DNA of 64,000 bases from positions 128,771 to 192,770 of the forward strand of contig CAVZGV010000003.1 in the NCBI GenBank assembly GCA_963774955.1, written 5' to 3'. Shown in pieces: positions 1,461-16,880 of the stretch; positions within the stretch are counted from its first letter, which is position 1, and the number at the start of each line of letters is the position of its first letter. A program made the position numbers and the translations under genes. Source of the DNA: Candidatus Falkowbacteria bacterium (GTDB lineage: Bacteria; Patescibacteriota; Patescibacteriia; CAIXNZ01). Below the pieces are notes generated by a model. The model did not search any database and was not told where the DNA came from. It was given only the letters and a program-made list of their open reading frames with translations.

Positions 1461-3260
1461 ATGTTAGACTTAACGCGCTGGAAAAATAAGAAGAAAGTCC
1501 CGGGCAGTAAAAGCTTGGAACCCAGAATTAAGGTATTAGCCATTTGTTTGGTTCTTTTTGGCTTATTAATCATTGGTAAGTTGTTTGATTTTCAGGTTTT
1601 AAAGTTTGAATTTTACGCAGCTTTGGCCTCTGACCAACATGAAGTGTATAAGAAGCTTTTTCCGGCCCGAGGTTCAATCTATGTCAAAGATAAGGGTAGC
1701 TCGATCTTGGCAGCTGAAGAAAATTTGTATCCTTTAAGTATTAATAAAGATTATAATTTGGTTTATGGCCAGCCTAAATTTTTAGAACAAAGCCCTGAGG
1801 ATGTGGCAACTTTATTGGCGCCTATTTTAGAGCCTGACCAGATAAAACGCGAGGAATTAATCAAGGAATTAGTGGCTAAATTATCTAAAACAGATGATCC
1901 TTATGAACCGTTAGTTCATAAAGTCGAGGATAGCCAGGCTGAATTGATTAATAATCTCAAACTTAAGGGGATTAAAACTTCCAAGGAAACATTCAGATAT
2001 TATCCGGAAAATAATATTGGCGCCAATATTTTAGGCTATGTCGGCTTTGCTGATGACGGTACCAGAAAAGGTTATTATGGAATTGAAGGCTATTTTAATA
2101 AAGAATTGGCCGGCAGACAGGGTGAAATTCAGTCAGAAAAAGATATTACTGGGACCTTGATATCAGTGGGTGAAAGAAAATTTGTTCAGGCCAAAGACGG
2201 AGATGATATTGTTTTGACTATTGATAAAACTGTGCAATTTGAAGTCTGCAGTCAGTTGAATCAGCACGCTAAAGTGGTGGAAGCTGACAGTGCGGCAGCT
2301 ATAGTCATGAATCCGCAAACTGGTGAAATTATTGCCATGTGTTCCTGGCCTGATTTTGACCCCAATGATTATGGTAAAGTCACTAACCCTGCTGATTTTA
2401 AGAATTTGGCGGTTTATGATGCCTATGAGCCCGGTTCGATTTTTAAACCTATAACCATGGCAGCTGCACTGGATTTGGGCAAGATAACACCCGAAACAAC
2501 CTTTATTGATGAAGGTGAAGTAAAAATTGATGAATTTACTATCCGCAATTCTGATAAACGGGCTCACGGTAAAATGACCATGACTCAAGTTTTGGAAAAT
2601 TCTTTAAACTTGGGTACTATTTTCGCTATGCGCCAGATGGATCATAAAGATTTTCGCAGATACGTAGAAAAATTCGGGTTTGGCAAAGAAACCGGTATCG
2701 AACTGCTTGAAAGTGAAGGAAATATTGCCGCCATGCAAAAAAAGAGTGAGATCTTTTTTGCTACCGCTTCATTTGGCCAGGGGATAACGGCTACGCCCCT
2801 GCAGATGGTTCAGGCCTTTTCAGCCATTGCTAATGGTGGTAAACTGGTGAAACCTTATATTGTTGAAGAGATCAGGAAAACCGAAGGTATTGTCATTAAA
2901 ACAGAAAGACCCGAGCCGATTCAGATAATATCTTCAAGGACTGCGACGCTCCTAACCGGTATGCTGGTTTCTGTTATCAAAAATGGTCAGGGTAAAAAGG
3001 CGGCAGTGCCCGGGTATTATATGGCCGGCAAATCCGGTACGGCTCAAATAGCCAATTATGAAGCCGGCGGTTATTATGCCAATAAAACCAATCATTCATT
3101 TATCGGCTTTGCCCCGATTCGTGATCCGGCTTTTGTCATGATTATCAAATTTGAAAATCCTAAAAAAGGAAGCTTTGCTGAAAGTACCACTATGCCTGTT
3201 TTTTCACGTATCTCCAAATTTTTGTTGGATTATTATCATGTGGTACCGGATGATATCTAA
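1461..3260 (+). CDS. ftsI: class B penicillin-binding protein (FtsI/PBP2-type transpeptidase)
   Basis: N-terminal TM anchor and transpeptidase motifs SIFKP (SxxK), SxN region and KSGT (GKSGTAQ). Lies next to murF in dcw-like order. PBP2 versus PBP3 cannot be resolved by eye. Confidence 0.8.
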   Translation: MLDLTRWKNKKKVPGSKSLEPRIKVLAICLVLFGLLIIGKLFDFQVLKFEFYAALASDQHEVYKKLFPARGSIYVKDKGSSILAAEENLYPLSINKDYNLVYGQPKFLEQSPEDVATLLAPILEPDQIKREELIKELVAKLSKTDDPYEPLVHKVEDSQAELINNLKLKGIKTSKETFRYYPENNIGANILGYVGFADDGTRKGYYGIEGYFNKELAGRQGEIQSEKDITGTLISVGERKFVQAKDGDDIVLTIDKTVQFEVCSQLNQHAKVVEADSAAAIVMNPQTGEIIAMCSWPDFDPNDYGKVTNPADFKNLAVYDAYEPGSIFKPITMAAALDLGKITPETTFIDEGEVKIDEFTIRNSDKRAHGKMTMTQVLENSLNLGTIFAMRQMDHKDFRRYVEKFGFGKETGIELLESEGNIAAMQKKSEIFFATASFGQGITATPLQMVQAFSAIANGGKLVKPYIVEEIRKTEGIVIKTERPEPIQIISSRTATLLTGMLVSVIKNGQGKKAAVPGYYMAGKSGTAQIANYEAGGYYANKTNHSFIGFAPIRDPAFVMIIKFENPKKGSFAESTTMPVFSRISKFLLDYYHVVPDDI

Positions 3261-3339
3261 CCAGCTTTGAGCATTGAGCTTTGTGTTTAGAGCTTTTGCC
3301 CTAAGCCCATAGCCCTAAGCTTTAAGCCATTATTTAAAT

Positions 3340-4725
3340 ATGAATCAACGAAATATGTCCGCCAAAGGCGGATCCGCCTCTGGCGGAAAAAAAATACTTC
3401 AAAACATCTTGCGCGATCTAGCCGGAAAAATCTTGAGTTATTTTGCGCGGAAAATTTTGCAAAAATATAAACCGGAAATTGTGGGCATTACCGGCAGTGT
3501 CGGCAAAACTTCAGCTAAAGAGGCGATTTATGCTGTTTTGTCGTCTCAATTTAATGTGCGTCAGAATATTAAAAGCTATAATAATGAAATCGGCACGCCG
3601 TTGACTATAATTGGAGAAGAAACAGGCGGCCGGTCAATTTTCAAATGGCTTAAGGTTTTTTATACTGTTTTTAAATTATTGATAATTAAGGCTAATAATT
3701 ATCCACGGATTTTGGTCCTGGAAATGGGTGCTGATAAAGTCGGTGATATTGAATATCTGGTTAAATTAGCCCCGCCTAAAATCGGGGTTTTAACTGCTAT
3801 AACCGAATCCCATTTGCATATGTTTAAGGACCTAAAGGGAGTTTTAAAGGAAAAGGAAAAGATTGTTACAACCTTACCAAAGGAAGCTGCTGCCTTGCTC
3901 AACGCCGATGATGAATATGTTATGAGTGTGAAAAATAAAATTAAAGCCCGCGTTTTGACTTATGGTTTTGGCGACGAGTCTAATATCAAAGCCGGCGAGA
4001 TTTTATTTACCGGCTTGGAACAGGATTTTTGCGAGACTCAGTATGACTGGGAATGTAAAACCTGGGGTACAAATTTTAAAGTAACTTATAATGGCTCATC
4101 CGTGCCGGTATTTTTACCGCATTGTTTCGGCAAACAGCAGGCTTATGCGGCTTTGGCCGGAATTGCGGCTGGCTTGGTTTATAAAATGAATCTGGTTGAT
4201 ATTGCCGATGCTTTAAAGGAATTTCAGCCGCCTAAAGGCAGAATGAATTTGATTGCCGGGATTAAATATACCCTGATTGTAGATGATACCTATAATTCAT
4301 CTCCGGTGGCGGCTAAGGCAGCGTTGGAAATGTTACAGTCAATAAATTTACCGGCTGGTAAAAGAAAAATCGCTGTTTTGGGAGATATGCTGGAATTAGG
4401 TGACCGCTCAGAATCAGCTCATAGGGAGATAGGATTTAAAGTAGTTGAGTATGGACTTGATAATCTGGTGGCAGTTGGCAAAGAAGCGAAATTAATAGCC
4501 GAGGCAGCCAAAGAAGCCGGCATGCCGGCGGAAAATGTTGAATATTTTGAGGACCGAGATAAGGCCGGTATTTATGTCCAGAATTTGATTGAGAAAGGCG
4601 ATTTGATTTTGGTCAAAGGTTCTCAAGGTATAAGAATGGAAAAAATTGTTCTGGAAATTATGGCAGAGCCTTTAAAGGCAGGGGAGTTGTTGGTCAGGCA
4701 GACAGGGGAATGGCTTAATAAATAA
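3340..4725 (+). CDS. murF: UDP-N-acetylmuramoyl-tripeptide--D-alanyl-D-alanine ligase (MurF), short N-terminus
   Basis: Mur-ligase P-loop ITGSVGKTS, DDTYNSSP (E. coli DDSYNANV) and C-terminal GDMLELG. The first 14 codons are encoded by the double-hairpin repeat cassette. Confidence 0.85.
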   Translation: MNQRNMSAKGGSASGGKKILQNILRDLAGKILSYFARKILQKYKPEIVGITGSVGKTSAKEAIYAVLSSQFNVRQNIKSYNNEIGTPLTIIGEETGGRSIFKWLKVFYTVFKLLIIKANNYPRILVLEMGADKVGDIEYLVKLAPPKIGVLTAITESHLHMFKDLKGVLKEKEKIVTTLPKEAAALLNADDEYVMSVKNKIKARVLTYGFGDESNIKAGEILFTGLEQDFCETQYDWECKTWGTNFKVTYNGSSVPVFLPHCFGKQQAYAALAGIAAGLVYKMNLVDIADALKEFQPPKGRMNLIAGIKYTLIVDDTYNSSPVAAKAALEMLQSINLPAGKRKIAVLGDMLELGDRSESAHREIGFKVVEYGLDNLVAVGKEAKLIAEAAKEAGMPAENVEYFEDRDKAGIYVQNLIEKGDLILVKGSQGIRMEKIVLEIMAEPLKAGELLVRQTGEWLNK

Positions 4726-4940: not shown

Positions 4941-5013
4941 GGGCCTCTTCGTCTAGTGGCTAGGACGCATGGTTCTCATCCATGTAACAGGGGTTCGATT
5001 CCCCTAGGGGCTA
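4941..5013 (+). tRNA. tRNA-Glu (anticodon CUC)
   Basis: Hand-folded cloverleaf: acceptor GGCCTCT/AGGGGCT (2 G-U pairs), D arm GTC-TAGTGGCTAG-GAC, anticodon arm CATGG-TTCTCAT-CCATG, T arm AGGGG-TTCGATT-CCCCT. Aligns to E. coli tRNA-Glu. Confidence 0.75.
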
Positions 5014-5027
5014 TTATAAAAAGTTCT

Positions 5028-5094
5028 TCCGCCATAGGCGGACCCGCCTCTGGCGGGCATCCTGGTAATAGGGGTTCGATTCCCCTTGGCGGTA
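5028..5094 (+). ncRNA. degenerate tRNA-like element (tRNA 3'-half copy fused to a double GC hairpin)
   Basis: T arm identical to tRNA-Glu (AGGGGTTCGATTCCCCT). Acceptor-like pairing TCCGCCA/TGGCGGT. Only about 67 nt, with the D and anticodon arms replaced by two 6-bp hairpins (TCCGCC-ATA-GGCGGA, CCCGCC-TCT-GGCGGG). Confidence 0.3.
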
Positions 5095-5146
5095 TTAGCA
5101 ATATTTACTCTCAGACTCAAGGGTCTTTTTTTGTTTATTTGTAGCT

Positions 5147-5290: not shown

Positions 5291-5743
5291 ATGCCGTGTA
5301 ACATTGGTTATCGGGTGTATGCTCCGATCAAGATTCCGGCCCCAGTGCCCCAGGAATTCAAAAGCAGGACTGAGGCGCCGAAAATTGACGCTGAGCTTCT
5401 GGACAGATTAGGGGAATCAGATCCCGTATTCTGTGAGTGGCTCAAAGCCTTGGATATTAAACCTTTGCTGCAGCAGGCCCTGGAACGGGCTTTGACTAAA
5501 GTAAAAATTACCAAGACTCTGAAAGTTCAGATTTCTGATGCTGGCTATCTGGAGGCACAGGCCAGTTTTATTGGCGAGGCGCAAAAAGCCAAGCTGGAAA
5601 AATTGTCCGGCCAGGTCGCTTCCCAGTTTCAACTGGAAGTCATGAAAATGATTGCTGAGCTTTTGGACTATGAGACAGCCGTGACCGAAGATAAAAACGG
5701 CGGCTGGGTAATCGAAGGAGAAAAAAATGAGCAACGTTCATAA
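5291..5743 (+). CDS. hypothetical protein (island gene 1), helical
   Basis: Strong RBS AAAGGGAGG then ATG at 5291; the track ORF 5153..5743 extends upstream via an alternative start. Stop overlaps the next start (ATGA), indicating coupling. Confidence 0.5.
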   Translation: MPCNIGYRVYAPIKIPAPVPQEFKSRTEAPKIDAELLDRLGESDPVFCEWLKALDIKPLLQQALERALTKVKITKTLKVQISDAGYLEAQASFIGEAQKAKLEKLSGQVASQFQLEVMKMIAELLDYETAVTEDKNGGWVIEGEKNEQRS

Positions 5744-5960
5744 GTATCTGAAGATCAGCAAAAGTCCTGACGGGAAAGACGGCCTGGAATTTGAACATTT
5801 TGAAAGTCAGGAAGCTGCTGACCAGGAACAGGACAGGTTTGTTGCCTTGGCTCAGGCGCTGGGTCTGGAAATCAAAGTCAGCAAAGCCAGAAAAGGCGGA
5901 CAGCCGATTGCCGGCAATACAGTCCATAAGGATTTTCTACCCGGTCGCAATCGGACTTAA
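5727..5960 (+). CDS. hypothetical small protein (island gene 2)
   Basis: RBS GAAGGAG, 77 aa. Overlaps the upstream stop and sits 12 nt before the AAA gene. Confidence 0.45.
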   Translation: MSNVHKYLKISKSPDGKDGLEFEHFESQEAADQEQDRFVALAQALGLEIKVSKARKGGQPIAGNTVHKDFLPGRNRT

Positions 5961-5972
5961 GAGGAGAAGACA

Positions 5973-7928
5973 ATGACAGCGAAGAAAAAAGAAAGGTTTG
6001 AACCGGAGAATGCATTGCCGCTCGTGCCCATCTGGCTGAGCGAACAAATTATCTGTCCGTTTCAGTCGGGCATTGCCTCAGTTTTTCTGCTTCATGGCGA
6101 TATCGGAGGCCTGGTGGCTAATCCGGACAGGGAAGACGATCCGGATGAAGACAAATACATTACGCTGCCCGAATTTTTCCAGAGGATTTTTTCCGAAAGG
6201 GAAATGGTCATCTTCTATGACATCGCCAACGGTCTGCGCTTTTTGACGCCGGAAATGAAAAATATTTTCCGGCAAAAAGTCGGACTGGACAGCGCACCGA
6301 CAGGTTCTGCTGACGCAATTGCCGCGGCCAAAGCCCAGCTTAAGGCCAAACAGGCTCTGCCGCGTGATGTGGAAAGCTGCCTGCCCCTGATTGATAAGGT
6401 TTTGAAAACCATGAACAATGTGGCAGTCATTATCCAATCGGCTCATTTTATTGCGCCGACTTCAAGTGGTGTGGCCTTACCGCCTAACGAACGGGTTAAT
6501 ATTGAAACGCTGCGCAACTGGATTCAGTCTGCCAATATCAGGAAAAGTAAAAATGTGGTTTTGCTGCTGACTGACCAGTCGGCCAAAGTGAGCTCGGAAC
6601 TGCGGCAAAGCGGTTCGGAACTGATCACGGTTTTTATTCCCAAACCCAATTTTCAGGAACGGCTGGACTTTATCCAGTCAATCGCAGTCAACGCCGAGCA
6701 GGCGGAAGCTTTATTTAAGAGGCTGAGAGAGCACGAAAGCAAACTGAAAGGGCTGGGGCCGGCCTCATCCAAACGAGCTACTCTTGAATCTGAAGTTAAT
6801 GAGATTCAGGAAGCGCTCGATGAGCTCCCGATCGCCATCGATCTGCCCAAGGACTTTGATTCCAAATCCATGGCAGTGGCCACGCAAGGCATGAATCTGC
6901 GTCAGATCCGGGATATTTTCCTGGAAAGCTCCAAAAGCGGCAAAGCCATTGACCTGGATTATGTCCGCCGTAGAAAGCAGGATATTCTCAATAGCGAATA
7001 CGGGGATGTCATGGAAGTCGTGGAACCTAAACGCGGATTGGAAGACATCGGCGGCATGGAACACATCAAGGTTTATTTTTCTCGCGTGCTGTCAGCCATT
7101 CGCCAGGGTGAATCCCGGCTGGTACCTATGGGTATCACGCTGATGGGTCCGCCGGGTACTGGCAAAACAGCCTTGGTTGAAGCTCTGGCTTTTGAGGCCA
7201 AGTTCACTTTTGTTAAAACCAAAAGCATTCGTTCCATGTGGGTCGGCGAATCCGAAGCCCGTCAGGAAAAACTGATTTGGGGTTTGCGCGCTCTGGCGCC
7301 GGTCGTGGTCATGAATGACGAGGCTGATTTGAACGAAGCCAACCGCGACGCGCCCAAAGGCGATTCCGGAGTTTCCGAACGCCTGATGAAGATGTGGATG
7401 GAACTGCTGTCAGATCCGAAAATCCGTGGCCAGATCATTGTCATCAACTGCACCAACCGGCCTGACCGGATTGACGCGGCGCTCAAGCGCAGTGGACGCA
7501 GTGATGAAAGATTGCTTTTGCCCATGCCTTCACAGGCTGAGCGGGAAGCAATTTTTCAGGTGATGATCAAGCGGCATCAGATTCCGACCAGTTTGAAGGA
7601 GTTTTCGGGCTTTGCCCAAAGCACCTCTGACCTGTCCGGAGCTGATCTGGAAAACGTGGTCCTTCGCGCTTACAGCTTTGCAGCTGAAAAGGGTAAAAAG
7701 GTCATTGACGAAGAATGCCTGCAGGAGGCGATCAGGGATTTTATTCCCAGCGCCAGTCAGGAAGCGATTGACCGGATGACTTTGTACGGCTTGTCTGAAT
7801 GTTCTTCGCGCCGGCTTTTGCCTCCCAATGCCAAGGAAATCCTGATCAAGATCATGCAGCGTCGGCTGGTGCCTGAACAGGACGAAATCGTCGCGCTGAT
7901 CAAATCACGCAAGATCGTGGAGTTGTAA
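5973..7928 (+). CDS. two-domain classical AAA ATPase: degenerate N-terminal domain plus active CDC48/FtsH-clade domain
   Basis: Walker A GPPGTGKT, SxWVGESE, Walker B MNDEADL, second region of homology TNRPDRIDAALKRSGRSDERL. The N-terminal half has a P-loop-less relic VFLLHGDIGG. Confidence 0.85.
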   Translation: MTAKKKERFEPENALPLVPIWLSEQIICPFQSGIASVFLLHGDIGGLVANPDREDDPDEDKYITLPEFFQRIFSEREMVIFYDIANGLRFLTPEMKNIFRQKVGLDSAPTGSADAIAAAKAQLKAKQALPRDVESCLPLIDKVLKTMNNVAVIIQSAHFIAPTSSGVALPPNERVNIETLRNWIQSANIRKSKNVVLLLTDQSAKVSSELRQSGSELITVFIPKPNFQERLDFIQSIAVNAEQAEALFKRLREHESKLKGLGPASSKRATLESEVNEIQEALDELPIAIDLPKDFDSKSMAVATQGMNLRQIRDIFLESSKSGKAIDLDYVRRRKQDILNSEYGDVMEVVEPKRGLEDIGGMEHIKVYFSRVLSAIRQGESRLVPMGITLMGPPGTGKTALVEALAFEAKFTFVKTKSIRSMWVGESEARQEKLIWGLRALAPVVVMNDEADLNEANRDAPKGDSGVSERLMKMWMELLSDPKIRGQIIVINCTNRPDRIDAALKRSGRSDERLLLPMPSQAEREAIFQVMIKRHQIPTSLKEFSGFAQSTSDLSGADLENVVLRAYSFAAEKGKKVIDEECLQEAIRDFIPSASQEAIDRMTLYGLSECSSRRLLPPNAKEILIKIMQRRLVPEQDEIVALIKSRKIVEL

Positions 7929-8010: not shown

Positions 8011-9030
8011 ATGGGTGGTCCTTCAGGTAAGTTTTATGACAGGGATGTGAGTGATAGAAGTAGCCGGACATCAAGCGGTACTTCTCAGGTTTCTGAAGAA
8101 GCCATGTCCCGCTCAAGAGTTGATGCCTCGCTTTTGCCCAAGGGACGGGAATTGGTCTGCAATGCCAAAAGTCCTTTGGTCTATGCTTTTGACGTAACCG
8201 GTTCAATGGGTAATTTGCCCAAGATCATTTATGACAAGATGCCCATGATTGCCGGACAGCTGGTGGAACAGGGTTATCTTGATGATCCCATGATCAGTAT
8301 TGCCGCTGTCGGCGACATCGAGTCGGATCTGGCACCTATTCAGATCGCGGATTTTTCTTTGATCCGCGCCCTGGATACCTGGCTGCAGAAGATCTGGCTG
8401 GAAGGCAATGGCGGCGGACAGGCCAAAGAATCTTATGAATTTACGGCCTATTTCTACGCCAGAATGTTCAAGATGCCCAAGGCAGTCACGCCATTTTTCC
8501 TCTTTACCGGAGACGAAGGTTTTCGGGAGGAATTGCTGGTCAATGACCTGAAAGCCCATTTTGGTGGAGAACATCAGAAAGTCAGCGCCTTTACCATTTT
8601 CGAGGAGCTCAAGAAGAAGTTCTTCGGCAATGTCTATCTGATCCATCGGAAATATGAGCGTTCGGAAAATGCCAGCATCGTCAGACAGTGGCAGGAAGCT
8701 CTGGGCAAAGAACGGGTGATTGATCTGCCCGAGGATCTGGCCATTGCCGATCTTACTCTGGGGCTTTTCGCAGTCACCGTCGGCGGTCGTACCCTGAAAG
8801 ATTACCTCAAGGAAATGAAGGAGAGGGAACAGACCGAAGACCGTATCAAGAAAGTCGGCAAGGCTCTGGAAGTCGTGGCCAGTCTGGCCAAGTCAAAGCC
8901 GGCTGACGCAGACGAGGAAAAAAATTCCGCGGCTGATGATGACGACGATAACAAGCCGACCAAGTCGGACAAACCAAAGCCGACTGATAAAAAGAAAAAA
9001 CCCGGCGGGAAAAAGCCCGGCCGGTTCTAA
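8011..9030 (+). CDS. von Willebrand factor A (vWA) domain protein with a charged low-complexity tail
   Basis: MIDAS motif in LVYAFDVTGSMGN (DxTGS). C-terminal D-rich then K/P-rich tail. RBS AAAGGAGG. Confidence 0.7.
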   Translation: MGGPSGKFYDRDVSDRSSRTSSGTSQVSEEAMSRSRVDASLLPKGRELVCNAKSPLVYAFDVTGSMGNLPKIIYDKMPMIAGQLVEQGYLDDPMISIAAVGDIESDLAPIQIADFSLIRALDTWLQKIWLEGNGGGQAKESYEFTAYFYARMFKMPKAVTPFFLFTGDEGFREELLVNDLKAHFGGEHQKVSAFTIFEELKKKFFGNVYLIHRKYERSENASIVRQWQEALGKERVIDLPEDLAIADLTLGLFAVTVGGRTLKDYLKEMKEREQTEDRIKKVGKALEVVASLAKSKPADADEEKNSAADDDDDNKPTKSDKPKPTDKKKKPGGKKPGRF

Positions 9031-9050
9031 GCTCTAAATTTTAGAGACTC

Positions 9051-9078
9051 AATCAGTTTGGGGCAACCCAAACTGATT
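9051..9078 (+). promoter_or_regulatory. perfect 12-bp stem with GCAA tetraloop in the vWA to PK-like intercistronic spacer
   Basis: AATCAGTTTGGG-GCAA-CCCAAACTGATT. Preceded by the small palindrome CTCTAAA-T-TTTAGAG. Confidence 0.45.
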
Positions 9079-9138
9079 CTACTCTGGAATTTATGGTAAT
9101 GAACATTGAAACTCAAAAAAATTAAGGAGGGAACAGAG

Positions 9139-10062
9139 ATGTCTAAGAGTGCCACGGTTAGAATCATGGCGACTTTAGCGCCTTATGTTGACCATCGGGC
9201 CGAAATCATCGGTCATCCTTTGGTTAAGGAATTGCGCCTGAATACGGTCATGCCCATTGCCGAGCCCAAACTGGAACTTCTGACTCGGCTCAAACATGAA
9301 TGCGGAAAAAAGAAGCTGTGGCTGGATCTGAAAACCAGGCAGCTGCGCATCACCAAATTCGCCTATCTGCCGTATGCCTATGTGGAACTCAGCCACAGAA
9401 TCAAGGTTGATCTGCCGGCCACGATCTACTTCAAAGATGGTACTGCCAAAATCGTGGAAATTTTCAACGGCAATAAGTTGATTTTGGCTGAACGGCCCAT
9501 GCGGGTTGTCGGCGAAGGCGAACCCGTCAATATTCTGGATCCGTCATTGCAGATTGAAGGTTTTTTAACTGACAATGATCGGGAATACGTAGCGGCGGCT
9601 AAAAAACTCGGATTGCATGATTACATGCTCTCATTCGTAGAAAGCGGTAATGATTTGCGGGAACTTTGGCAGCTTGATAATGAAGCCAAACCAATACTTA
9701 AGATCGAATCACTGCGCGGCTTGGATTTTTTGTCGAATTACCGTCAGGTTTTTCACACTAATATGCGCCTGATGGTTGCCCGTGATGATCTTTACATCAA
9801 CATGGGTGAGCAGAAAACAGATATGCTGCGCGCACTAGCCGCGATTATTAAAAATGATCCGCGGGCATATTGTGCCTCTCGGCTGCTGACTTCGTTGGAA
9901 GAAAAGGATGAAGTCGCCTTGCAGGATCTGTCTGATTTGCAGCTGATGCTGCTGTCCGGCTACCGGAGGTTTTTGCTGAGCGACATGCTGTGCTTTCACC
10001 ACGCGTCTTTTACCAAAACCATGGCCGTGCTCAGTGAATTTTTTCCGGGCGGGAGGTTCTAA
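9139..10062 (+). CDS. pyruvate-kinase-like TIM-barrel domain protein (PK/HpcH/PEP-utilizing superfamily) lacking PK C-domain
   Basis: KIESLRGLD...MVARDDLYINMGEQK resembles PK (S)KIENQEG...MVARGDLG. Start taken at the ATG after RBS AAGGAGGG; the track ORF starts 33 nt earlier. Confidence 0.5.
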   Translation: MSKSATVRIMATLAPYVDHRAEIIGHPLVKELRLNTVMPIAEPKLELLTRLKHECGKKKLWLDLKTRQLRITKFAYLPYAYVELSHRIKVDLPATIYFKDGTAKIVEIFNGNKLILAERPMRVVGEGEPVNILDPSLQIEGFLTDNDREYVAAAKKLGLHDYMLSFVESGNDLRELWQLDNEAKPILKIESLRGLDFLSNYRQVFHTNMRLMVARDDLYINMGEQKTDMLRALAAIIKNDPRAYCASRLLTSLEEKDEVALQDLSDLQLMLLSGYRRFLLSDMLCFHHASFTKTMAVLSEFFPGGRF

Positions 10063-11507
10063 TGCCCAAGAGTAAAGTTTTCATTGTTACGGATTTGGGC
10101 CTCGGTGACGCCGGTAAAGGTACTATCGTAGATTATCTGGCCCGGCATCATCCGGTTAAATCAGTAATCAGATTCAATGGCGGTCCGCAGGCAGCCCACT
10201 GTGTGGTCACTGCTGACGGCCGTCACCATGTCTTTGCTCAGTTTGGTTCCGGTTCTTTTTCCGGCGGGGTGGAAACTTTCTTGTCTGGCCAGATGCTGGT
10301 GGAACTGGAAAATCTGATGGTTGAAAATGAATACCTGATTGGGGCAGGCATTAAGGACGGCTTTGAACGTTTAACGGTTGATCCGTCTGCCTGTCTGGTT
10401 ACGCCGGCTCATAAAATGCTCGGTCAGCTCAAAGAAATCAAGCGCGGCTCAAAGCGCCTTGGTTCCTGCGGTATGGGCGTCGGCGAGGCTGCCAAGGATC
10501 GGGCTGATAAGTCTGCGATTACTGTCGCTGACTGTCTTGATAAAGCCGGTTTGAAAATAAAACTGGCCAGGCAATTTGAAACAAAGTTCCGTCAGGTACA
10601 GCCCCTGATGAAAGGCAATCGTTCAGCCAAGGCAGGCAAGCTTTATCACTATTTCCAAGAGCGCTTGAACCCTGTTGAGCTGGCTGAGATTTACCACGGG
10701 ATAGTTAGCCGTCTGCGCTTGGCGCCCTCGGCAAAATACCTGAGCCCCGGACAATTAAACGGCGCAAACCTGATTTTCGAAGGTGCCCAGGGTGTCCTGC
10801 TTGATCATGAATATGGCTTTTATCCCTATGTGACCAAAACCCGTTCGACCGGTCAGAATGCTTTGGCTTTATTGCAGTCAGCAGTCGACAGCATTGAGCT
10901 TGAAAAGTATTTTGAGATCAGTCGGGTCGGGGTGATCAGGGCTTATGGCCATCGGCACGGTGCTGGGCCGTTTGTCAGTGAAAGTCCCAGGCTGAGAAAA
11001 TACTTTCAGGATAAATTCAATCTGACCAATTCCTGGCAGGGAAAATTCCGGGTCGGCTGGCTGGATATGATTACTCTCAATTACGGTCTGTTCATCAACG
11101 GGGGAGTTGATTATCTGGCTTTAACCAATCTGGATCAGCTGAGCGGTTTGGCCAGGATCAAGGTCTGCGTGGCCTATAGCTACCAGGGCGATTTAAGTCA
11201 GCTGGATAAGTTCTTTATCTGGAAGAAAACCGGAGAAAATCAGGCCATAATCTATGCCATCAAAAAAGCTGATCCGCTTTTGATTGGCACTGGTCAATTG
11301 GCTGAACTGCTCCTCAGGTGTAAGCTGGGTAAGTGGCTGGAATTTCCAGGCTGGCAGCAGGATATTTCCCGGGTGAAAAAGCTGGCTGATCTGCCGCGCC
11401 AGGCTAGGGGATTTCTGACTTATCTGCAGAATCCGACGGCTTTGTATAAGCCGATCAAAATCATTTCAGTCAATGCGACTGAAGAAGGGAAAATATGGAT
11501 CGACTAA
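10062..11507 (+). CDS. divergent adenylosuccinate synthetase (PurA/PurZ-like) homolog
   Basis: P-loop GDAGKGT (PurA GDEGKGK), FEGAQGVLLD (FEGAQGTLLD), GAGPF, GWLD. GGHNAGH is changed to GGPQAAH, and TTGRRRR to NSWQGKFR. Start overlaps the upstream stop (TAATG). Confidence 0.75.
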   Translation: MPKSKVFIVTDLGLGDAGKGTIVDYLARHHPVKSVIRFNGGPQAAHCVVTADGRHHVFAQFGSGSFSGGVETFLSGQMLVELENLMVENEYLIGAGIKDGFERLTVDPSACLVTPAHKMLGQLKEIKRGSKRLGSCGMGVGEAAKDRADKSAITVADCLDKAGLKIKLARQFETKFRQVQPLMKGNRSAKAGKLYHYFQERLNPVELAEIYHGIVSRLRLAPSAKYLSPGQLNGANLIFEGAQGVLLDHEYGFYPYVTKTRSTGQNALALLQSAVDSIELEKYFEISRVGVIRAYGHRHGAGPFVSESPRLRKYFQDKFNLTNSWQGKFRVGWLDMITLNYGLFINGGVDYLALTNLDQLSGLARIKVCVAYSYQGDLSQLDKFFIWKKTGENQAIIYAIKKADPLLIGTGQLAELLLRCKLGKWLEFPGWQQDISRVKKLADLPRQARGFLTYLQNPTALYKPIKIISVNATEEGKIWID

Positions 11508-11533
11508 GCTCCGCTATGCGGAGCTTTTTATTT
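11506..11533 (+). terminator. rho-independent terminator closing the island operon
   Basis: AAGCTCCGC-TAT-GCGGAGCTT followed by TTTTATTTT. Confidence 0.65.
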
Positions 11534-11561
11534 TGGGGAGAAATTTTTGTCCCCAGGTTAT

Positions 11562-11589
11562 TTGACAGATTTCAGGGGCGTGCTATAAT
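11562..11589 (+). promoter_or_regulatory. near-consensus sigma70 promoter (TTGACA-16-TATAAT) upstream of the ArsR gene
   Basis: Exact -35 and -10 hexamers. Confidence 0.6.
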
Positions 11590-11616
11590 TTAGACAGTTA
11601 TCTAAATATCTAATAA

Positions 11617-11883
11617 TTGGCTATGAATTTACATAATACAATCTCTGCCTTGGCTGACCCGACCAGACGAAAAATTCTGGAGCTTTTAAAAAAAGAGGAT
11701 ATGCCTGCCGGCCAGATTAATAAGCATTTTCAGATTACGGCGCCGTCTTTGACCCATCATTTGAATATTTTGCGCCAGGCTGATTTGGTAACCAGCCAAC
11801 GGCAGGGGCAGGAAATTATTTATTCCCTGAATTTAAGCGTGTTTGAAGAAGTGGCTCAGGCGCTTATTAAATTTTTTCAATAA
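11617..11883 (+). CDS. ArsR/SmtB-family HTH regulator (SdpR-like)
   Basis: ALADPTRRKILELL...GQINKHFQITAPSLTHHLNILRQADLV is a winged HTH. Confidence 0.75.
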   Translation: MAMNLHNTISALADPTRRKILELLKKEDMPAGQINKHFQITAPSLTHHLNILRQADLVTSQRQGQEIIYSLNLSVFEEVAQALIKFFQ

Positions 11884-11924
11884 GAAATTAAAAATTGATA
11901 ATTAAAAATTAATAATTTGTTTAT

Positions 11925-12599
11925 ATGTCTAATCCCATCAAGCCAAGTTTAAAAACAGAAATCATTCCGCTTCTTTTAATTATTATTTCTGTTGTGACTG
12001 CATTTTATTTTTATGCCAATTTCCCGGAACAGGTTCCTCTGCATTGGAATTTTAGCGGCCAGGTGGACGGCTGGGGCAGTAAAATTACCGGTGCCTTTGT
12101 TTTACCGATTGTAATTTTAGCAATGTACCTGATGTTTCTATTGATTCCTTATCTTGATCCGAAAAAAGATCGCTATGAACAATTTGTTAAAGTCTATCAT
12201 ATTTTTAAAAACTACCTCATAGGCTTCATGGTTTTGGTTTATTTGGTTACTGGGCTGGCCGGGCTAGGTTATGATGTGCCGGTCGGCATAATTATTCCGG
12301 TTGGCGTAGGCATTTTATTTATTTTGATTGGCAATTACATGGCCAAGATAAAAATGAATTGGTTCATGGGGATCAGAACACCCTGGACCTTATCATCCGA
12401 AGAAGTTTGGAATAAGACACATCGCATGGGCGGCAAGATATTTATTCTCGGCGGAGCTTTGATAATTTTGACTGGCTTTGCCCCTCTAAATTGGCGATTA
12501 CCCAGCTTTATTCTGACTATGATATTATTGGTATTTGGCACCATTGGGTATTCATATATAGTTTATCGCCAGGAAAAAAATAACAAATCAGTTCAGTAA
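11925..12599 (+). CDS. SdpI/YhfL-family membrane protein (DUF1648-SdpI-like)
   Basis: Multi-TM protein with the motif GIRTPWTLSSEEVWNKTHR. Paired with the upstream ArsR, as in sdpR-sdpI. Confidence 0.5.
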   Translation: MSNPIKPSLKTEIIPLLLIIISVVTAFYFYANFPEQVPLHWNFSGQVDGWGSKITGAFVLPIVILAMYLMFLLIPYLDPKKDRYEQFVKVYHIFKNYLIGFMVLVYLVTGLAGLGYDVPVGIIIPVGVGILFILIGNYMAKIKMNWFMGIRTPWTLSSEEVWNKTHRMGGKIFILGGALIILTGFAPLNWRLPSFILTMILLVFGTIGYSYIVYRQEKNNKSVQ

Positions 12600-13091: not shown

Positions 13092-14913
13092 ATGTCTTGG
13101 ATTTTAAATACTTTAAAGAAATTAGCTAAAAAGAAAAGTTTTTGGATTATTTTGGTTATTGCCATTATTGCAGTAATTCTTATTTTTAACGCGACTAAAG
13201 GCAAGAAAACTGTTTATACGATGGAAACGGTTAAACTGGGCAATCTAGTTCAGACAGTATCAGAAACAGGTACGGTGGAATCAGCTTCGGCCATTGATCT
13301 GAATTTTAAAGGCAGCGGCAAGTTGGTTGACTTGAATATTAAAGAAGGTGATCAGGTTGAAGCCGGTGATCTACTGGCGCGTTTGGATGCCGGAGCTTTG
13401 GAAATTGCCGTGCGACAGTCACAAGCTAATGTTGATATTGCTCAGGCTAATTTAAATAAATTATTGGCCGGCGCCAGCACGGAAGATCTTAAAGTTACCG
13501 AAGAGACGGTTAATAATGCCAGAATTGCTTATGCCAATGCCAAGAATAATTATGATAATTCTTTGTTGAAAATTGACGCTGAGACTACGACTTATGAGCA
13601 GGCAGTGACAGCAGCGCAAACAAGCTTGGATAATACTAAAAATTCTTATGATAAAACCGTGGCTGATGCCAGACAGAATTTACTCACCACTTTGCGCAAC
13701 AAAGCCAATGTGGCCAACACCAGCTTGGATTTTATTTATTACCAATATAATAATTTGAACAATGTCAGTGACCAACAGGCCAAGTCCAATACCCTCTGGT
13801 CATATAATTTAGCCATGGATAATAAAACTAAATTGGTTAATTATTTGAATAAATCAGACCAGTCCATGAGTGAAGATGAAATCAGTCAGGCGAGTGCGAC
13901 TGCCATTACTCTTTTTGAGCAAATTAATGACAGTTTAAACAATCTTTTTAATGCTATCAGCTCCTCTGTCATTGATGCCCGTTTTTCGCAAACTTTGGTT
14001 GATAATGCCAAGGCTTTAGTTAAGAGCCAGCAGGCTGCAGACAGCGCCAATTTGTTGGCTTTACAATCAGCTGATCAGGCCTATAAGACAGCCAAATTGA
14101 GTTATACCAGCGCGGTTGATAATGCGACTTCTAATCTGACCACAGCCCAAAATAACCTTAATTCCGTCTTGGCCAATAAAGATGTTTCTTTGGTTTCCGC
14201 CAAAGCGACTTTGGATTCTGCTTTAGGCGCCTATAATCTGGCCCAGGCTCAATTGGCCTTCAAAGAGGCTAAACCCCGACAGGTGGATATCTCTTATTAT
14301 CAGGCTCAGGTAAATCAGGCTGTGGCTGCCAGAGATTTAGCTTTGAACAATTTGAAGGATTATGTTATTTATGCGCCTACAGACGGAGTGATTACTTTTG
14401 TAAATTACAAATTAGGCGAGCAAATCGGTATGGCTACGACTGCAAAACCGGCAATTGCCATTATTGGCAATAGTGATTTCCAGATTAAAGTTGATGTGCC
14501 GGAATCAGATATTATTAAAATTAAAGTCGGTAATGAAACCAATATCACGTTGGATGCTTATGGCAGTGACATTATCTTTAAGGGTAAAATAATATCTATT
14601 GATCTGGCTGAGACTGTGATTCAGGATGTGGTTTATTACAAAATTACTGTGGAACTGGAGCCGACTGACAAGGAAATTAAATCCGGCATGACTGCCAATG
14701 TCGATATTATCACGGCTACCGTCGAAAATGTTCTGTATTTATCGAACCGTACGATTAAAACAAGATACTGACGGCCAAAAATATGTGGAAGTTAAAAAAT
14801 TTGGCGGTGGAGAGGAAATAATTAATATTGAAATCGGCATCAGGGCTGATACCGGTACAGAAATTATAAGCGGTTTAAAAGACGGCCAGGAGGTGATTGT
14901 TTCTAAAAAATAA
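13092..14913 (+). CDS. HlyD/MacA-type periplasmic adaptor of an ABC efflux system; C-terminus frameshifted near 14760
   Basis: TM anchor, long coiled coil, beta-barrel (YVIYAPTDGVITFV). The C-terminal lipoyl-like segment DTDGQKYVEV...GLKDGQEVIV continues in the +1 frame (track ORF 14698..14913). Confidence 0.6.
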
Positions 14914-14922
14914 TAATACTGT

Positions 14923-15651
14923 ATGGAGAAAAAAGTACTAATAAAATTAGACAATCTTAAAAAAGATTATGTTAATGATGAAGTGGTTACCCATGTTTTG
15001 AAAGGCATTAATTTGGAAATTAATACAGGGTGAATTTGTGGCTATTATGGGTCCGTCCGGTTCAGGTAAATCAACGCTGATGCATATCATGGGTTTTTTG
15101 GATAAGCTGACTACTGGCAAATATTTATTCAAAGGTAAGGATGTTAGTAATCTGTCTGATGATGAATTGGCTGAAATCAGAAATGAAGAAGTCGGTTTTA
15201 TTTTTCAGGCTTTTAATCTGCTTACAGCGTACCAGTGTTTATGATAATGTGCGTTTGCCTTTGACTTATAGCAATAAAAAAATTTGATAAAGATAAAGTC
15301 ATTACTGCCATTAAATCAGTTGGTTTGTATCATCGTTTGAATAATTTATCCAATCAGCTTTCCGGCGGTGAAAAACAAAGAGTGGCGATTGCCCGCGCTT
15401 TGGTCAATGATCCGTCAATTATTTTTGCAGATGAACCGACCGGTAATTTGGATTCCAAATCCGGCAAACAAATCATGGAGATTTTGCAGGATTTAAATGA
15501 AGAAGGTAAAACTATTATTTTAGTTACTCATGAAAAATATACGGCAGAACATGCCCGCAGGATTATTAAAATCGTTGACGGCGAAATTATCGATGATTAT
15601 CAGGTTAAAGAGCGCTTGATTGCCAGATTAGAAAAAGATTTAACCAAATAA
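14923..15651 (+). pseudogene. MacB/LolD-type ABC ATPase, at least 3 frameshifts
   Basis: Walker [10 protein letters not shown] in one frame, [15 protein letters not shown] and the D-loop in another. Stops between fragments. Confidence 0.7.
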
Positions 15652-15654
15652 TTT

Positions 15655-16880
15655 ATGGAATTGGCTTCTAGCTTAAGAATTGCTTTTACCGGTTTGAAGT
15701 CAAAAAAGACCCGAACATTTTTAACAATGCTCGGGATTATTATTGGCATTTCTTCGGTTATTATGATTATTTCCGTAGGCGCCGGTGCTCAAAGTTTGAT
15801 TTTAAATCAGATTAAAGCTTTGGGTTCAAATCAAATTTCAATTTTTCCTGGTGCTTCAGAAGAATCAGGTCCGCCACCCAGTGTTTTTGGTTCAGCCAAT
15901 ACCAGTTTGAAAATTGATGATATGGAGGCTCTTGATAAACGTCAAAATGTGCCCAATGTCGTGGCTGTTACTTATTATGTCCGTGGTACTGGCTACCATG
16001 ATTTGGCAGGACAATGAATATAACGGTACTTTTGTGGCCACTACAGCCAGTTATCCGGTTGTTCATGATATTAGCGTGGCTGAAGGTCGTTTTATTGATT
16101 CAGATGAGGAAAAAGATCTGGCCAAAGTGGTTGTTTTGGGCGCCAACGTTAAAGCAAGAACTTTTTGGTGATAGCAGATCCTTTGGGTCAGATGATTAAA
16201 ATAAAAAAACATCAGTTTCGGGTTATTGGCGTTATGGCTAAAAAGGGGACTTCTGGTTTTGAAAATCAGGATAATTATGTTTTTATTCCGATTTCAACCG
16301 GCCAAAAAATAATGTTAGGTATTGATTATGTTTCCTTGGCCAGGGTCAAAGTCAATTCGCAGGATAATGTTGATCAGGCAGTTGAGGATATTAAGGCTGT
16401 TTTGCGGGACAGACATAATTTGGATCGCAATGAACTGGATGATTTTACTGTTCGAGCCCAGGCTCAGGCTATTGAAATTTTTTCTTCAATTACTGATTCT
16501 TTAACTTATTTTTTGGCAGCTATTGCCGCGATTTCACTTTTGGTCGGCGGTATCGGTATTATGAATATTATGCTGATTAGTGTGACTGAAAGAACCAGGG
16601 AAATCGGCTTAAGAAAAGCTTTGGGCGCCAAAAGATACAAATATTTTGCAGTCAATTTTTAATTGAATCAATTGCCGTAACTTTGGCCGGCGGAATTATC
16701 GGTATTATTTTTGGATTAGCGGTTTCTTTTTTAGTGGCTTTGATTGCCAGACAGTTGGGTTATGATTGGGATTTGTCATTTCTATTTTCCTCAATATTTT
16801 TTCCTGTACAATTTCCATTTTAGTCGGTTTATTTTTCGGCCTTTACCCGGCCTTCAAAGCCTCGAGAATTAAATCCGATT
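15655..16880 (+). pseudogene. MacB-type FtsX permease copy 1, multiple frameshifts
   Basis: N-terminal TM (TFLTMLGIIIGISSVI), MacB periplasmic domain pieces, and C-terminal FtsX helices spread over 3 or more frames. Confidence 0.6.

Follow-up and report, generated by a model that had tools for sequence, protein, structure and literature searches.

The window analyzed here is a stretch of 64,000 nucleotides from contig CAVZGV010000003.1 of a Candidatus Falkowbacteria bacterium. It encodes a divergent homolog of adenylosuccinate synthetase (PurA) that, like its relatives, lacks the loop that binds aspartate. On balance, we propose that this enzyme depends on GTP, ligates 6-oxopurine nucleotides to a nucleophile that is not aspartate, and acts within a module that also includes a vWA-like protein and either an AAA+ ATPase or a J-domain protein. 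Judging from its pocket and its near-constant vWA-like partner, the enzyme very probably carries out a reaction that has not yet been described. This widespread variant of the PurA fold, in its module, appears to be new: there is no dedicated model for the clade in NCBIfam (June 2026), Pfam, PHROGs, or PADLOC, and in the full-text literature (with the subscription literature covered in part) we found neither the clade nor the module described, only the SEA-PHAGES label "PurA-like adenylosuccinate synthetase".

The substrate pocket of the enzyme family

An earlier reading of this DNA from its letters alone (the sequence-only reading) had recognized the PurA fold from short motifs, and this was correct. 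The open reading frame (Table 1) is exact, all of the quoted motifs are present (GDAGKGT, GGPQAAH, FEGAQGVLLD, GAGPF, and NSWQGKFRVGWLD), and Pfam PF00709 (Adenylsucc_synt) matches with 253 bits (E=6e-75). The protein scores below the cut-off of every NCBIfam equivalog for PurA, including TIGR00184 (213.5 versus 402) and NF002223 (198.7 versus 395.55). We modeled the enzyme with AlphaFold2 (AF2) from an alignment of 32 homologs (pLDDT 94.9, pTM 0.93). The best structural matches of this model, found with Foldseek, are long bacterial and eukaryotic PurA, including fully ligated enzymes from E. coli, with TM-scores of 0.86-0.89 and 22-27% identity. The enzyme resembles PurA (EC 6.3.4.4; PDB 1CG0 and 1GIM from E. 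coli) in its fold, its length class, its P-loop (GDEGKG in canonical PurA), and its loops for Mg and GTP, and both have the motifs FEGAQG, R-x-G-x-GPF, and R-x-GW.

In PurA, D13 (the base), H41 (the acid), and K16 provide the GTP-dependent phosphorylation of O6, and D333 reads the guanine (we use the numbering of E. coli PurA). The 5'-phosphate of the nucleotide is bound by N38, T129, T239, and, in trans, R143, while aspartate is bound by T300, T301, R303, and R305. R303 contacts both the ribose O2' and the aspartate (PMC8342488). The window enzyme keeps D13, K16, H41, Q224, T239, and D333. It differs from PurA by N38Q, T128S, T129C, K267R, V273H, T300W, T301Q, R305F, and the deletion of R303, and it has no R143; the residues of the in-trans phosphate contact and the dimer interface (R143, R147, and K140) are unconserved.

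The sequence-only reading had reported that two motifs of PurA, GGHNAGH and TTGRRRR, are replaced. We found no misalignment that would explain this: the pairing of the motifs holds in two alignments and in an unbiased scan of all columns. First, we used MAFFT to align the 120 best database homologs (36-63% identity) with E. coli PurA. D13, K16, H41, Q224, and D333 are kept in 120/120 homologs, T239 in 118/120, and S414 in 117/120. V273H and T300W are found in 120/120, N38Q (99%) and T301Q in 119/120, T128S in 112, and R305F in 111/120; H37 is replaced by P, A, or S, R131 is replaced by M or L, and position 129 is C, T, or V. The canonical aspartate loop, GxTTGRxRRxGW (which includes T300, T301, R303, and R305), is missing; across the family as a whole there is instead W, F, or Y at position 300, Q301, a gap at R303, and a hydrophobic residue at position 305. 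The run of arginines is shorter by one, with R306 retained. Second, an alignment to PDB 3ue9 with HMMER gave the same pairing of motifs; the position of the gap within the aspartate loop is all that differs, and TTGR(R)R is absent in both alignments.

For the scan, we contrasted every column between 126 family members and 35 canonical sequences, without choosing sites beforehand. The differently conserved columns are N38Q, L52F, I55F, P56G, S66T, I126H, T128S, K267R, V273H, and T301Q. Conservation is lost at K18, R131, Y137, D139, K140, R143, R147, E296, G298, K331, and R419, and R303 is a gap in 100% of family members. The invariants that both groups share are G12, D13, G15, K16, G17, R32, G35, G36, H41, G58, P76, E82, G127, G132, E221, G222, Q224, G225, L228, D229, G233, P236, T239, R272, G274, G276, R306, and D333. 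The systematic alteration of the pocket extends to 66 viral homologs that we reached independently, by searching with the vWA-like protein: these bear the same signature, and D13 (the catalytic aspartate), K16, and H41 are invariant in 66/66 of them as they are in the close homologs.

Because the same sites emerge from an unbiased scan and the catalytic and GTP-binding core is invariant, the changes in the pocket are real and under selection: they are a signature of the family, and neither chance nor decay. Given the roles in PurA of the residues that are kept and lost, the phosphoryl-transfer machinery is intact, the aspartate site is gone, and the ribose/phosphate site is remodeled. The clade retains all of the residues by which PurA binds GTP and Mg2+ and phosphorylates O6 of a 6-oxopurine nucleotide, and since the core motifs are shared with PurA, GTP-dependent activation of a 6-oxopurine is very likely retained. 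Among the contacts to the 5'-phosphate and ribose of IMP, only T239 and Q224 are kept, and the others are altered (N38Q, T129C/V, V273H, R303 absent, R143 unconserved). The aspartate-binding loop is gone across a large family, which points strongly to another amine or nucleophile as the donor. This part of the sequence-only reading stands; its comparison of the substitutions with those of PurZ is not supported.

PurZ and PurZ0, the succino-amino-deoxyadenylate synthases of Z-genome phages (NCBIfam NF038379; PDB 6FM1, 7ODX, and 7VF6), are, like our family, neofunctionalized homologs of PurA that are carried by phages. PurZ condenses aspartate, and the tip of its aspartate-contacting loop (T273-T276) is strictly conserved (PMC8342488); the catalytic aspartate is replaced by serine in all 147 phage PurZ sequences (PMC12884076). 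The window enzyme has the reverse pattern. Also, PurZ is of the short, archaeal type (~340-365 amino acids), whereas the window enzyme is of the long form. It scores 65.1 against the PurZ model, whose cut-off is 300, and its AF2 model matches 7VF6, 7ODX, and 6FM1 with TM-scores of 0.69-0.77. With phmmer, its similarity is E=4e-7 to PurZ-type structures versus 1e-38 to long PurA.

Phylogenetically, the family is separate from canonical PurA: in a neighbor-joining tree, 126 family members split from 35 canonical PurA with a bootstrap of ~94/100, which is approximate because the distance correction was saturated in a few replicates. Our genomic loci are a sample of at least 80, and all counts of genomic loci refer to the loci listed. 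Among these, proteins with GGxQAxH score at least 321 on the hidden Markov model (HMM) for the family, while those with the canonical GGxNAGH score at most 296, and most of the GGxQAxH proteins also fit the strict pattern WQGxFRxG(W/H). Members are found in actinomycetes with large genomes (Actinomadura, Streptosporangium, Streptomyces, Nocardia, Nocardiopsis, and Micromonospora), in Anaerolineae (Chloroflexi), Myxococcota, and Planctomycetota, and in Saccharibacteria and other lineages within the candidate phyla radiation (CPR). A contig from an Anaerolineae metagenome-assembled genome (L035) encodes the variant and a canonical-type PurA (GGDNAGH), at 1981-3345 and 6134-7399, ~3 kb apart. Because this contig holds both types and the clade is separate from canonical PurA, the enzyme appears to be a paralog, and not a lineage's replacement or housekeeping PurA.

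The gene module and its proteins

The most informative feature around the enzyme is a conserved gene module, which the sequence-only reading had missed. Where PurA belongs to purine synthesis, this enzyme is encoded with vWA, AAA+, and kinase-fold proteins. We scanned for each component with an HMM in the 49 family loci where the upstream sequence extends for 3.5 kb or more. In 46/49 of these, a vWA-like gene lies directly before the PurA-like gene or is separated from it only by a gene for a pyruvate-kinase-like (PK-like) protein. A J-domain protein with a kinase fold is present in 32/49 loci, an AAA+ ATPase in 7/49, and one or the other in 38/49; a single locus (L006) has both, and there the J-domain kinase is matched only weakly, on the opposite strand. 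It thus appears that a locus has either the J-domain protein or the AAA+ ATPase. A NrtR-type Nudix protein is found in 28/49 loci and the PK-like protein in 8/49.

As an independent probe, we searched metagenomes and IMG/VR with the vWA-like protein alone, that is, without any use of similarity to PurA. In the metagenomes, the gene order was mainly AAA+, vWA-like, PK-like, PurA-like. IMG/VR yielded 237 confirmed viral matches, many of them on contigs of 100-485 kb, with J-domain kinase, vWA-like, PurA-like as the typical order. The module is found in CPR bacteria, in actinomycetes, in Bixzunavirus phages, and on hundreds of viral contigs. Some loci vary. In L088, a nucleoside diphosphate kinase (NDK) lies between the AAA+ and vWA-like genes, the PK-like gene is absent, and guanylate kinase is adjacent. 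In L100, L113, L114, L117, and L133 there are two vWA-like paralogs, in the order AAA+, vWA-like (MGGGG), PK-like, vWA-like ("MREKGAWS"), PurA-like; L009 and L038 likewise hold two copies. Actinomycete reading frames of 725-872 amino acids, which might have been fusions of the vWA-like and PurA-like proteins, are due to start codons called furthest upstream in high-GC DNA, and mapping with HMMs shows separate adjacent genes.

About 200 records of mycobacteriophages from Bixzunavirus (cluster C1) contain the triad of kinase, vWA-like protein, and enzyme. In phage I3 (L086, NC_067270), these are gp270 (kinase; hhalign E=4e-53), gp271 (vWA-like; E=5e-68), and gp273 (the enzyme, at 5995-7323 of the locus). 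The motifs of gp273 are GGSQAGH, TRHGNGPF, and WQGKFRQGH, with the catalytic aspartate present and the aspartate loop absent. RefSeq and PHROG 1211 name the phage members "2-aminooxy adenylosuccinate synthetase" (that is, PurZ-type). Since they keep the catalytic aspartate and have lost the aspartate loop, this label is probably a mis-annotation. We also considered whether I3 gp272 (112 amino acids) is the 119-amino-acid protein that recurs as a viral neighbor, and a comparison ruled this out.

The vWA-like partner is nearly always present, and we found no match for it in Pfam (including its vWA models), in PADLOC, or among PDB sequences, and no model in NCBIfam (June 2026); in PHROGs it belongs to phrog_2971, of "unknown function". 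From its AF2 model (pLDDT 82.4), the partner is predicted to have the vWA fold with a metal-ion-dependent adhesion site (MIDAS): the top matches from Foldseek are the I-domains of integrin beta and the vWA domains of ITIH1 and ANTXR. The site reads D61-x-T63-x-S65, and there is an invariant GG..ESYE loop. Across the family, D61, S65, D102, D106, and D168 never vary, and T63 is conserved to at least 90%. The N-terminal tail (MGGPSGKFYDRD) is conserved and flexible, and the C-terminal tail is rich in lysine. The family is large, with 1,745 cluster representatives (at 50% identity) with E<=1e-3. In L003 (8357-9862) and L006 (7550-8974), the vWA-like proteins reach 475-502 amino acids because of an inserted domain of ~150 amino acids, which has no match in Pfam; the insert in L006 looks like a beta-sandwich.

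The AAA+ protein of the window has a classical domain of the CDC48/FtsH type in its C-terminal half (amino acids 384-590), and its N-terminal ~380 amino acids are unannotated. In NCBIfam, it has only sub-threshold matches to FtsH, CDC48, and PAN. This protein is kept in the module in L001, L009, L041, L087, and L088 and in most of the metagenomic loci. The J-domain kinase-fold protein has the HPD motif and, in L090, matches both DnaJ and Pkinase in Pfam. By eye, the aspartate of its catalytic loop is replaced in the consensus (HGA versus HGD or HRD). The Nudix box of the NrtR-type protein looks intact in the sequences that we inspected.

The PK-like protein consists of the A-domain only, with no C-domain, and keeps the catalytic motifs R-x-N, L-D-x-K, K-I-E-S, and A-R-D-D-L; in an alignment to yeast pyruvate kinase (1a3w), the "KIE" and "MVAR(G/D)DL" motifs are retained. 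Its profile matches PDB 8iw2_A (321 amino acids, deposited as "pyruvate kinase") over the full length with E=2e-11, and our literature search traced no paper associated with 8iw2. From these motifs, the PK-like protein probably regenerates an NTP (GTP), or else is a second client enzyme. Another recurrent component, which we call the 224-aa-type protein, has homologs of ~224 amino acids, each read from a single open reading frame, that start with MPC(N/D)(I/L)GY, and has no match in Pfam or PADLOC. It occurs on the strand of the module in 28 module loci (26 metagenomic and 2 genomic), and in L087 and L088 its gene immediately precedes the one for the AAA+ protein.

To describe the wider neighborhood, we clustered all of the neighboring proteins and then annotated them with Pfam. 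The recurrent families are NadE (16 loci), ATP-grasp R2K (11 loci, viral), ADP-ribosylglycohydrolase or ARH (8 loci, 5 of them viral), nucleoside-deoxyribosyltransferase-like proteins (8 loci), PRPP-synthetase-like (Prs-like) proteins (7 loci, 2 viral), HAD_SAK_2 (7 loci, viral), and NADAR (6 loci, 4 viral). L003 also has NMNAT, NAPRTase, NadA, NadB, NAD kinase, and PRK as neighbors. In L090, the order is NadE-NMNAT, DnaJ-kinase, vWA-like, ARH, PK-like, PurA-like, and a nicotinamidase-type isochorismatase. These neighbors support a link between the module and the turnover of NAD or ADP-ribose and of adenine or guanine nucleotides. Phages are known to carry modules linked to NAD and ADP-ribose, namely the NAD+ reconstitution pathways NARP1 (Adps and Namat), NARP2 (NAMPT and NMNAT), and NARP3 (PnuC and NadR-like), and Prs-like, NMNAT, NadE, ARH, and NADAR proteins recur beside the PurA-like module. 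However, NARP1-3 have no PurA-fold, vWA, J-domain kinase, or PK-like component, and the PurA-like chemistry would be on the purine ring and not on the nicotinamide-ribose bond. The core of our module has none of the components of NARP1-3 and a Prs-like gene is just an occasional neighbor, so we rejected the idea that it is one of them.

The proposed reaction and its alternatives

In the reaction that we favor, the enzyme would keep the first half-reaction of PurA, which is the GTP-dependent formation of a 6-phosphoryl-purine nucleotide. C6 of the purine would then be passed to a nucleophile other than aspartate, likely ammonia or a neutral amine, which would amount to direct amination. GTP would be regenerated by the PK-like enzyme, or by NDK in one locus. 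The vWA protein would be a Mg2+-dependent adaptor, and the AAA+ protein, or the host's Hsp70 if recruited via the J domain, would be an ATP-driven remodeler of the client enzyme or enzymes. The module might serve adenine-nucleotide turnover that is linked to NAD and ADP-ribose, and in phages it could plausibly help to restore nucleotide or NAD pools during infection.

The roles of the vWA and AAA+ proteins are suggested by analogy with the known MoxR-vWA pairs, which include the Rubisco activase CbbQ-CbbO, NorQ-NorD, and RavA-ViaA. In these pairs as in our module, a vWA protein with a MIDAS is encoded with an AAA+ protein next to a metabolic enzyme, and the alternation of AAA+ and J-domain proteins would fit an interchangeable ATP-driven remodeler (AAA+ or recruited Hsp70). 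There are differences: the AAA+ protein of the module belongs to PF00004, with its own N-terminal region of ~380 amino acids, and not to AAA_3 or AAA_5; its vWA protein matches no vWA model in Pfam; and any remodeling of a client by the module is suggested by gene adjacency.

Several other points weigh against this proposal. We infer both the nucleophile and the nucleotide substrate from the residues that are kept or lost. Because the 5'-phosphate site is altered, the substrate may be something other than IMP itself: D13, Q224, and T239, which contact the base or are catalytic, are kept, and N38, T129, R143, R303, and V273, which contact the 5'-phosphate or the ribose, are changed. The AAA+ protein, as a classical member of PF00004, is not of the MoxR type that is found in the known vWA-AAA+ activase pairs. 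Eight viral loci have the J-domain kinase, vWA-like, and PK-like genes in that order and no PurA-like gene (9 contigs, two of them duplicates: L171-L174, L176-L178, L184, and L193, at ~8700-12100 in each). Their vWA-like proteins start with "MSESADY...", not "MG...". Helping the PurA-like enzyme is therefore not the sole role of the PK-like protein, which may itself be a client. The association with NAD and ADP-ribose is based on raw counts of neighbors, without a background control, and involves a minority of loci. And the genomic loci are, again, a sample.

It is also conceivable, though we think it unlikely, that the enzyme is a protein-nucleotide ligase. The alpha-amine of the vWA partner's glycine, exposed once the initial methionine is excised, would take the place of aspartate and attack 6-phosphoryl-IMP. 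The product would be an N6-peptidyl-AMP at the N terminus of the vWA protein (~+330 Da is expected), and the AAA+ protein or J-domain kinase would act on, read, or reset the modified protein. This would be a kind of post-translational modification that has not been described before, used by large phages, actinomycetes, and CPR bacteria in NAD and ADP-ribose physiology or in conflict. The Pup ligase PafA is a carboxylate-amine ligase, derived from glutamine synthetase/GCL, that modifies a protein amine by way of a phosphorylated intermediate. It has an unrelated fold and chemistry, so it is an analogy for this alternative only.

What speaks for a protein ligase is mostly the N terminus of the vWA-like protein. 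Of the complete partners, ~196 out of 222 start with M-G-(G/S/Y)-(G/S/T)..(W/Y/F), and the AF2 model shows a flexible tail (pLDDT <60 for residues 1-20) whose sequence is nevertheless invariant. The MG start tracks the PurA-like gene (Fisher p=9e-9): the gene is present with 137 and absent with 2 of the proteins that have this start, and it is present with 5 and absent with 8 of those that do not. The viral loci without a PurA-like gene have tails of the type "MSES...". However, those 8 loci are one group of related phages, so there are few independent events, and 5 loci have the PurA-like gene without a detectable MG-type tail. Some of the loci with two vWA-like genes put the "MREKG"-type copy next to the enzyme. 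As for the pocket, the residues that were lost are those that bind the carboxylates of aspartate, and the aromatic or hydrophobic residues, glutamine, and histidine that replace them would fit a site for a glycyl peptide. The free alpha-amine of glycine is chemically the closest protein analogue of the alpha-amine of aspartate. The loss of the in-trans R143 and of the helix at the dimer interface would make space for a heterologous partner. The genes for the vWA-like and PurA-like proteins lie tightly side by side, but no fusions of them were found, and an enzyme that regenerates GTP (PK-like or NDK) points to catalytic turnover more than to a single modification of each protein.

Another alternative, to which we give little weight, is that the enzyme is an effector or switch of a conflict system: a regulated consumer of GTP or purine nucleotides, or a GTP-dependent sensor, in a module for defense (in bacteria) or counter-defense (in phages) whose control would lie with the vWA protein together with the kinase or the AAA+ protein. 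The module is shared by phages and bacteria, and in the window it lies on a horizontally acquired island next to a tRNA (see below). Regulators with vWA, AAA+, and kinase folds are typical of conflict systems, the neighbors of the module include enzymes that process ADP-ribose, and the kinase-fold partner has weak matches to kinase domains in PADLOC. On the other hand, none of the vWA-like, PurA-like, PK-like, and 224-aa-type proteins is matched in PADLOC. The actinomycete loci keep genus-level synteny with housekeeping-type neighbors rather than the content of defense islands, and the CPR loci lie among genes for NAD biosynthesis. The intact and strongly conserved catalytic machinery would fit a productive reaction equally well. 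We compared the module with the known anti-phage systems in PADLOC-DB v2 and rejected these as an identification: there were only generic similarities to AAA and kinase domains (IetA, PD-T4-6, and MkoA).

It is very unlikely that the enzyme is a true, if divergent, PurA and the organism's source of adenylosuccinate for AMP in a reduced genome of the CPR type. Public records do name homologs "adenylosuccinate synthase" or "synthetase", the catalytic core is intact, and we found no other PurA within the 64-kb window. But the residues for aspartate are absent across the family, the scores are far below the equivalog cut-offs, and the clade is separate; the family also occurs in actinomycetes with large genomes, in phages, and, in L035, beside a canonical PurA, and the gene in the window is on a compositionally foreign island. 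Finally, we consider it scarcely credible that the enzyme makes the precursor of 2-aminoadenine (Z) from dGMP and aspartate, as PurZ does: this would agree with the label on its phage homologs, but the kept catalytic aspartate, the lost threonine loop, the PurZ model score, and the structural comparison all oppose it, and there were no genes like datZ, mazZ, or dpoZ among the annotated neighbors in the window, in phage I3, or in the recurrent clusters (this search was not exhaustive).

The island in the window and implications for the family

In the window, the gene for the enzyme closes an operon with translational coupling (Table 1). Its ATG overlaps the stop codon of the PK-like gene (TAATG), with a Shine-Dalgarno sequence, GGGAGG, just 5'. 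The five genes form a same-strand block, and this island is compositionally foreign and horizontally acquired: the GC content is ~0.38 before tRNA-Glu, 0.45-0.54 right after it, and back to ~0.34 past 11600.

Table 1. Features of the island in the window
Feature	Coordinates	Strand	Details
tRNA-Glu(CTC)	4942..5013	+	ARAGORN; Rfam RF00005, 58.7 bits; left boundary of the GC-rich island
Partial tRNA-like repeat	5058..5106	+	49 nt, shares 80% identity with the tRNA's 3' half; repeat search
224-aa-type protein	5291..5960	+	First gene of the five-gene module; split into 5291-5743 and 5727-5960
AAA+ ATPase	5973..7928	+	651 aa; Pfam PF00004, E=2e-25
vWA/MIDAS partner (predicted)	8011..9030	+	339 aa; AF2/Foldseek
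Pyruvate-kinase-barrel-like protein	9106..10062	+	~307-318 aa; Pfam PF00224, 33 bits
PurA-like enzyme (Q38/H273/W300-Q301 variant clade)	10062..11507	+	ATG-to-stop open reading frame, 481 aa
Intrinsic-terminator-like hairpin	11506..11526	+	9-bp stem with 6 GC pairs, T-rich tail; operon and island stop here

The first gene of the block is split. In BLASTP against the homolog in L097 (6583-7254), the first part has 47% identity (E=6e-49) and the second part 50% (E=4e-21). The frame breaks at a run of seven A at ~5721-5727 (GGAGAAAAAAATGAGC). The run may mark a genuine frameshift or a site of slippage, or the break may come from a mistake in the assembly.

Between the tRNA and this gene, the partial repeat is not called as a tRNA by ARAGORN or Rfam; an integration event at the tRNA may have left it behind. 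This copy of the 3' half of tRNA-Glu lies 81 nt downstream of the real tRNA. A search for attachment sites found no direct repeat that brackets the island, only the partial tRNA-like copy and a chance 13-mer, and we saw no integrase at the island.

Past the terminator of the island, a sigma70-like promoter at 11562-11589 scores a perfect 12/12 and has an extended TG. It serves the gene for an ArsR-family regulator (11617-11883), which is followed by a gene for a SdpI/DUF1648 membrane protein (11925-12599). Further along are a gene of the HlyD family (13092-14771) and, downstream of it, a MacB-type ABC transporter that seems to be fragmented (15325-16662), with the C-terminal 108 amino acids of ABC_tran, 120 amino acids of MacB_PCD, and overlapping reading frames of 85 and 165 amino acids. 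The transporter may be a pseudogene or contain several frameshifts.

We propose that these PurA-like enzymes are a second neofunctionalized clade of PurA, with a pattern opposite to that of PurZ, in that they retain the catalytic core but have lost the aspartate site. PurZ is a precedent for a changed substrate in this fold, and it shows that a new pathway, the making of Z-DNA, can rest on a small change in the pocket of PurA. The near-constant vWA partner is itself a family of ~1,700 clusters (at 50% identity) without a name, a Pfam model, or a structure. Since the Bixzunavirus phages and Mycobacterium smegmatis are genetically tractable, the module should be easy to test. If the enzyme directly aminates IMP-like nucleotides, then PurB would be bypassed in a single step; if it modifies the N terminus of its partner, then this would be a new protein modification. 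If either is true, it would change the annotation of purine and NAD metabolism in reduced genomes and in phages.

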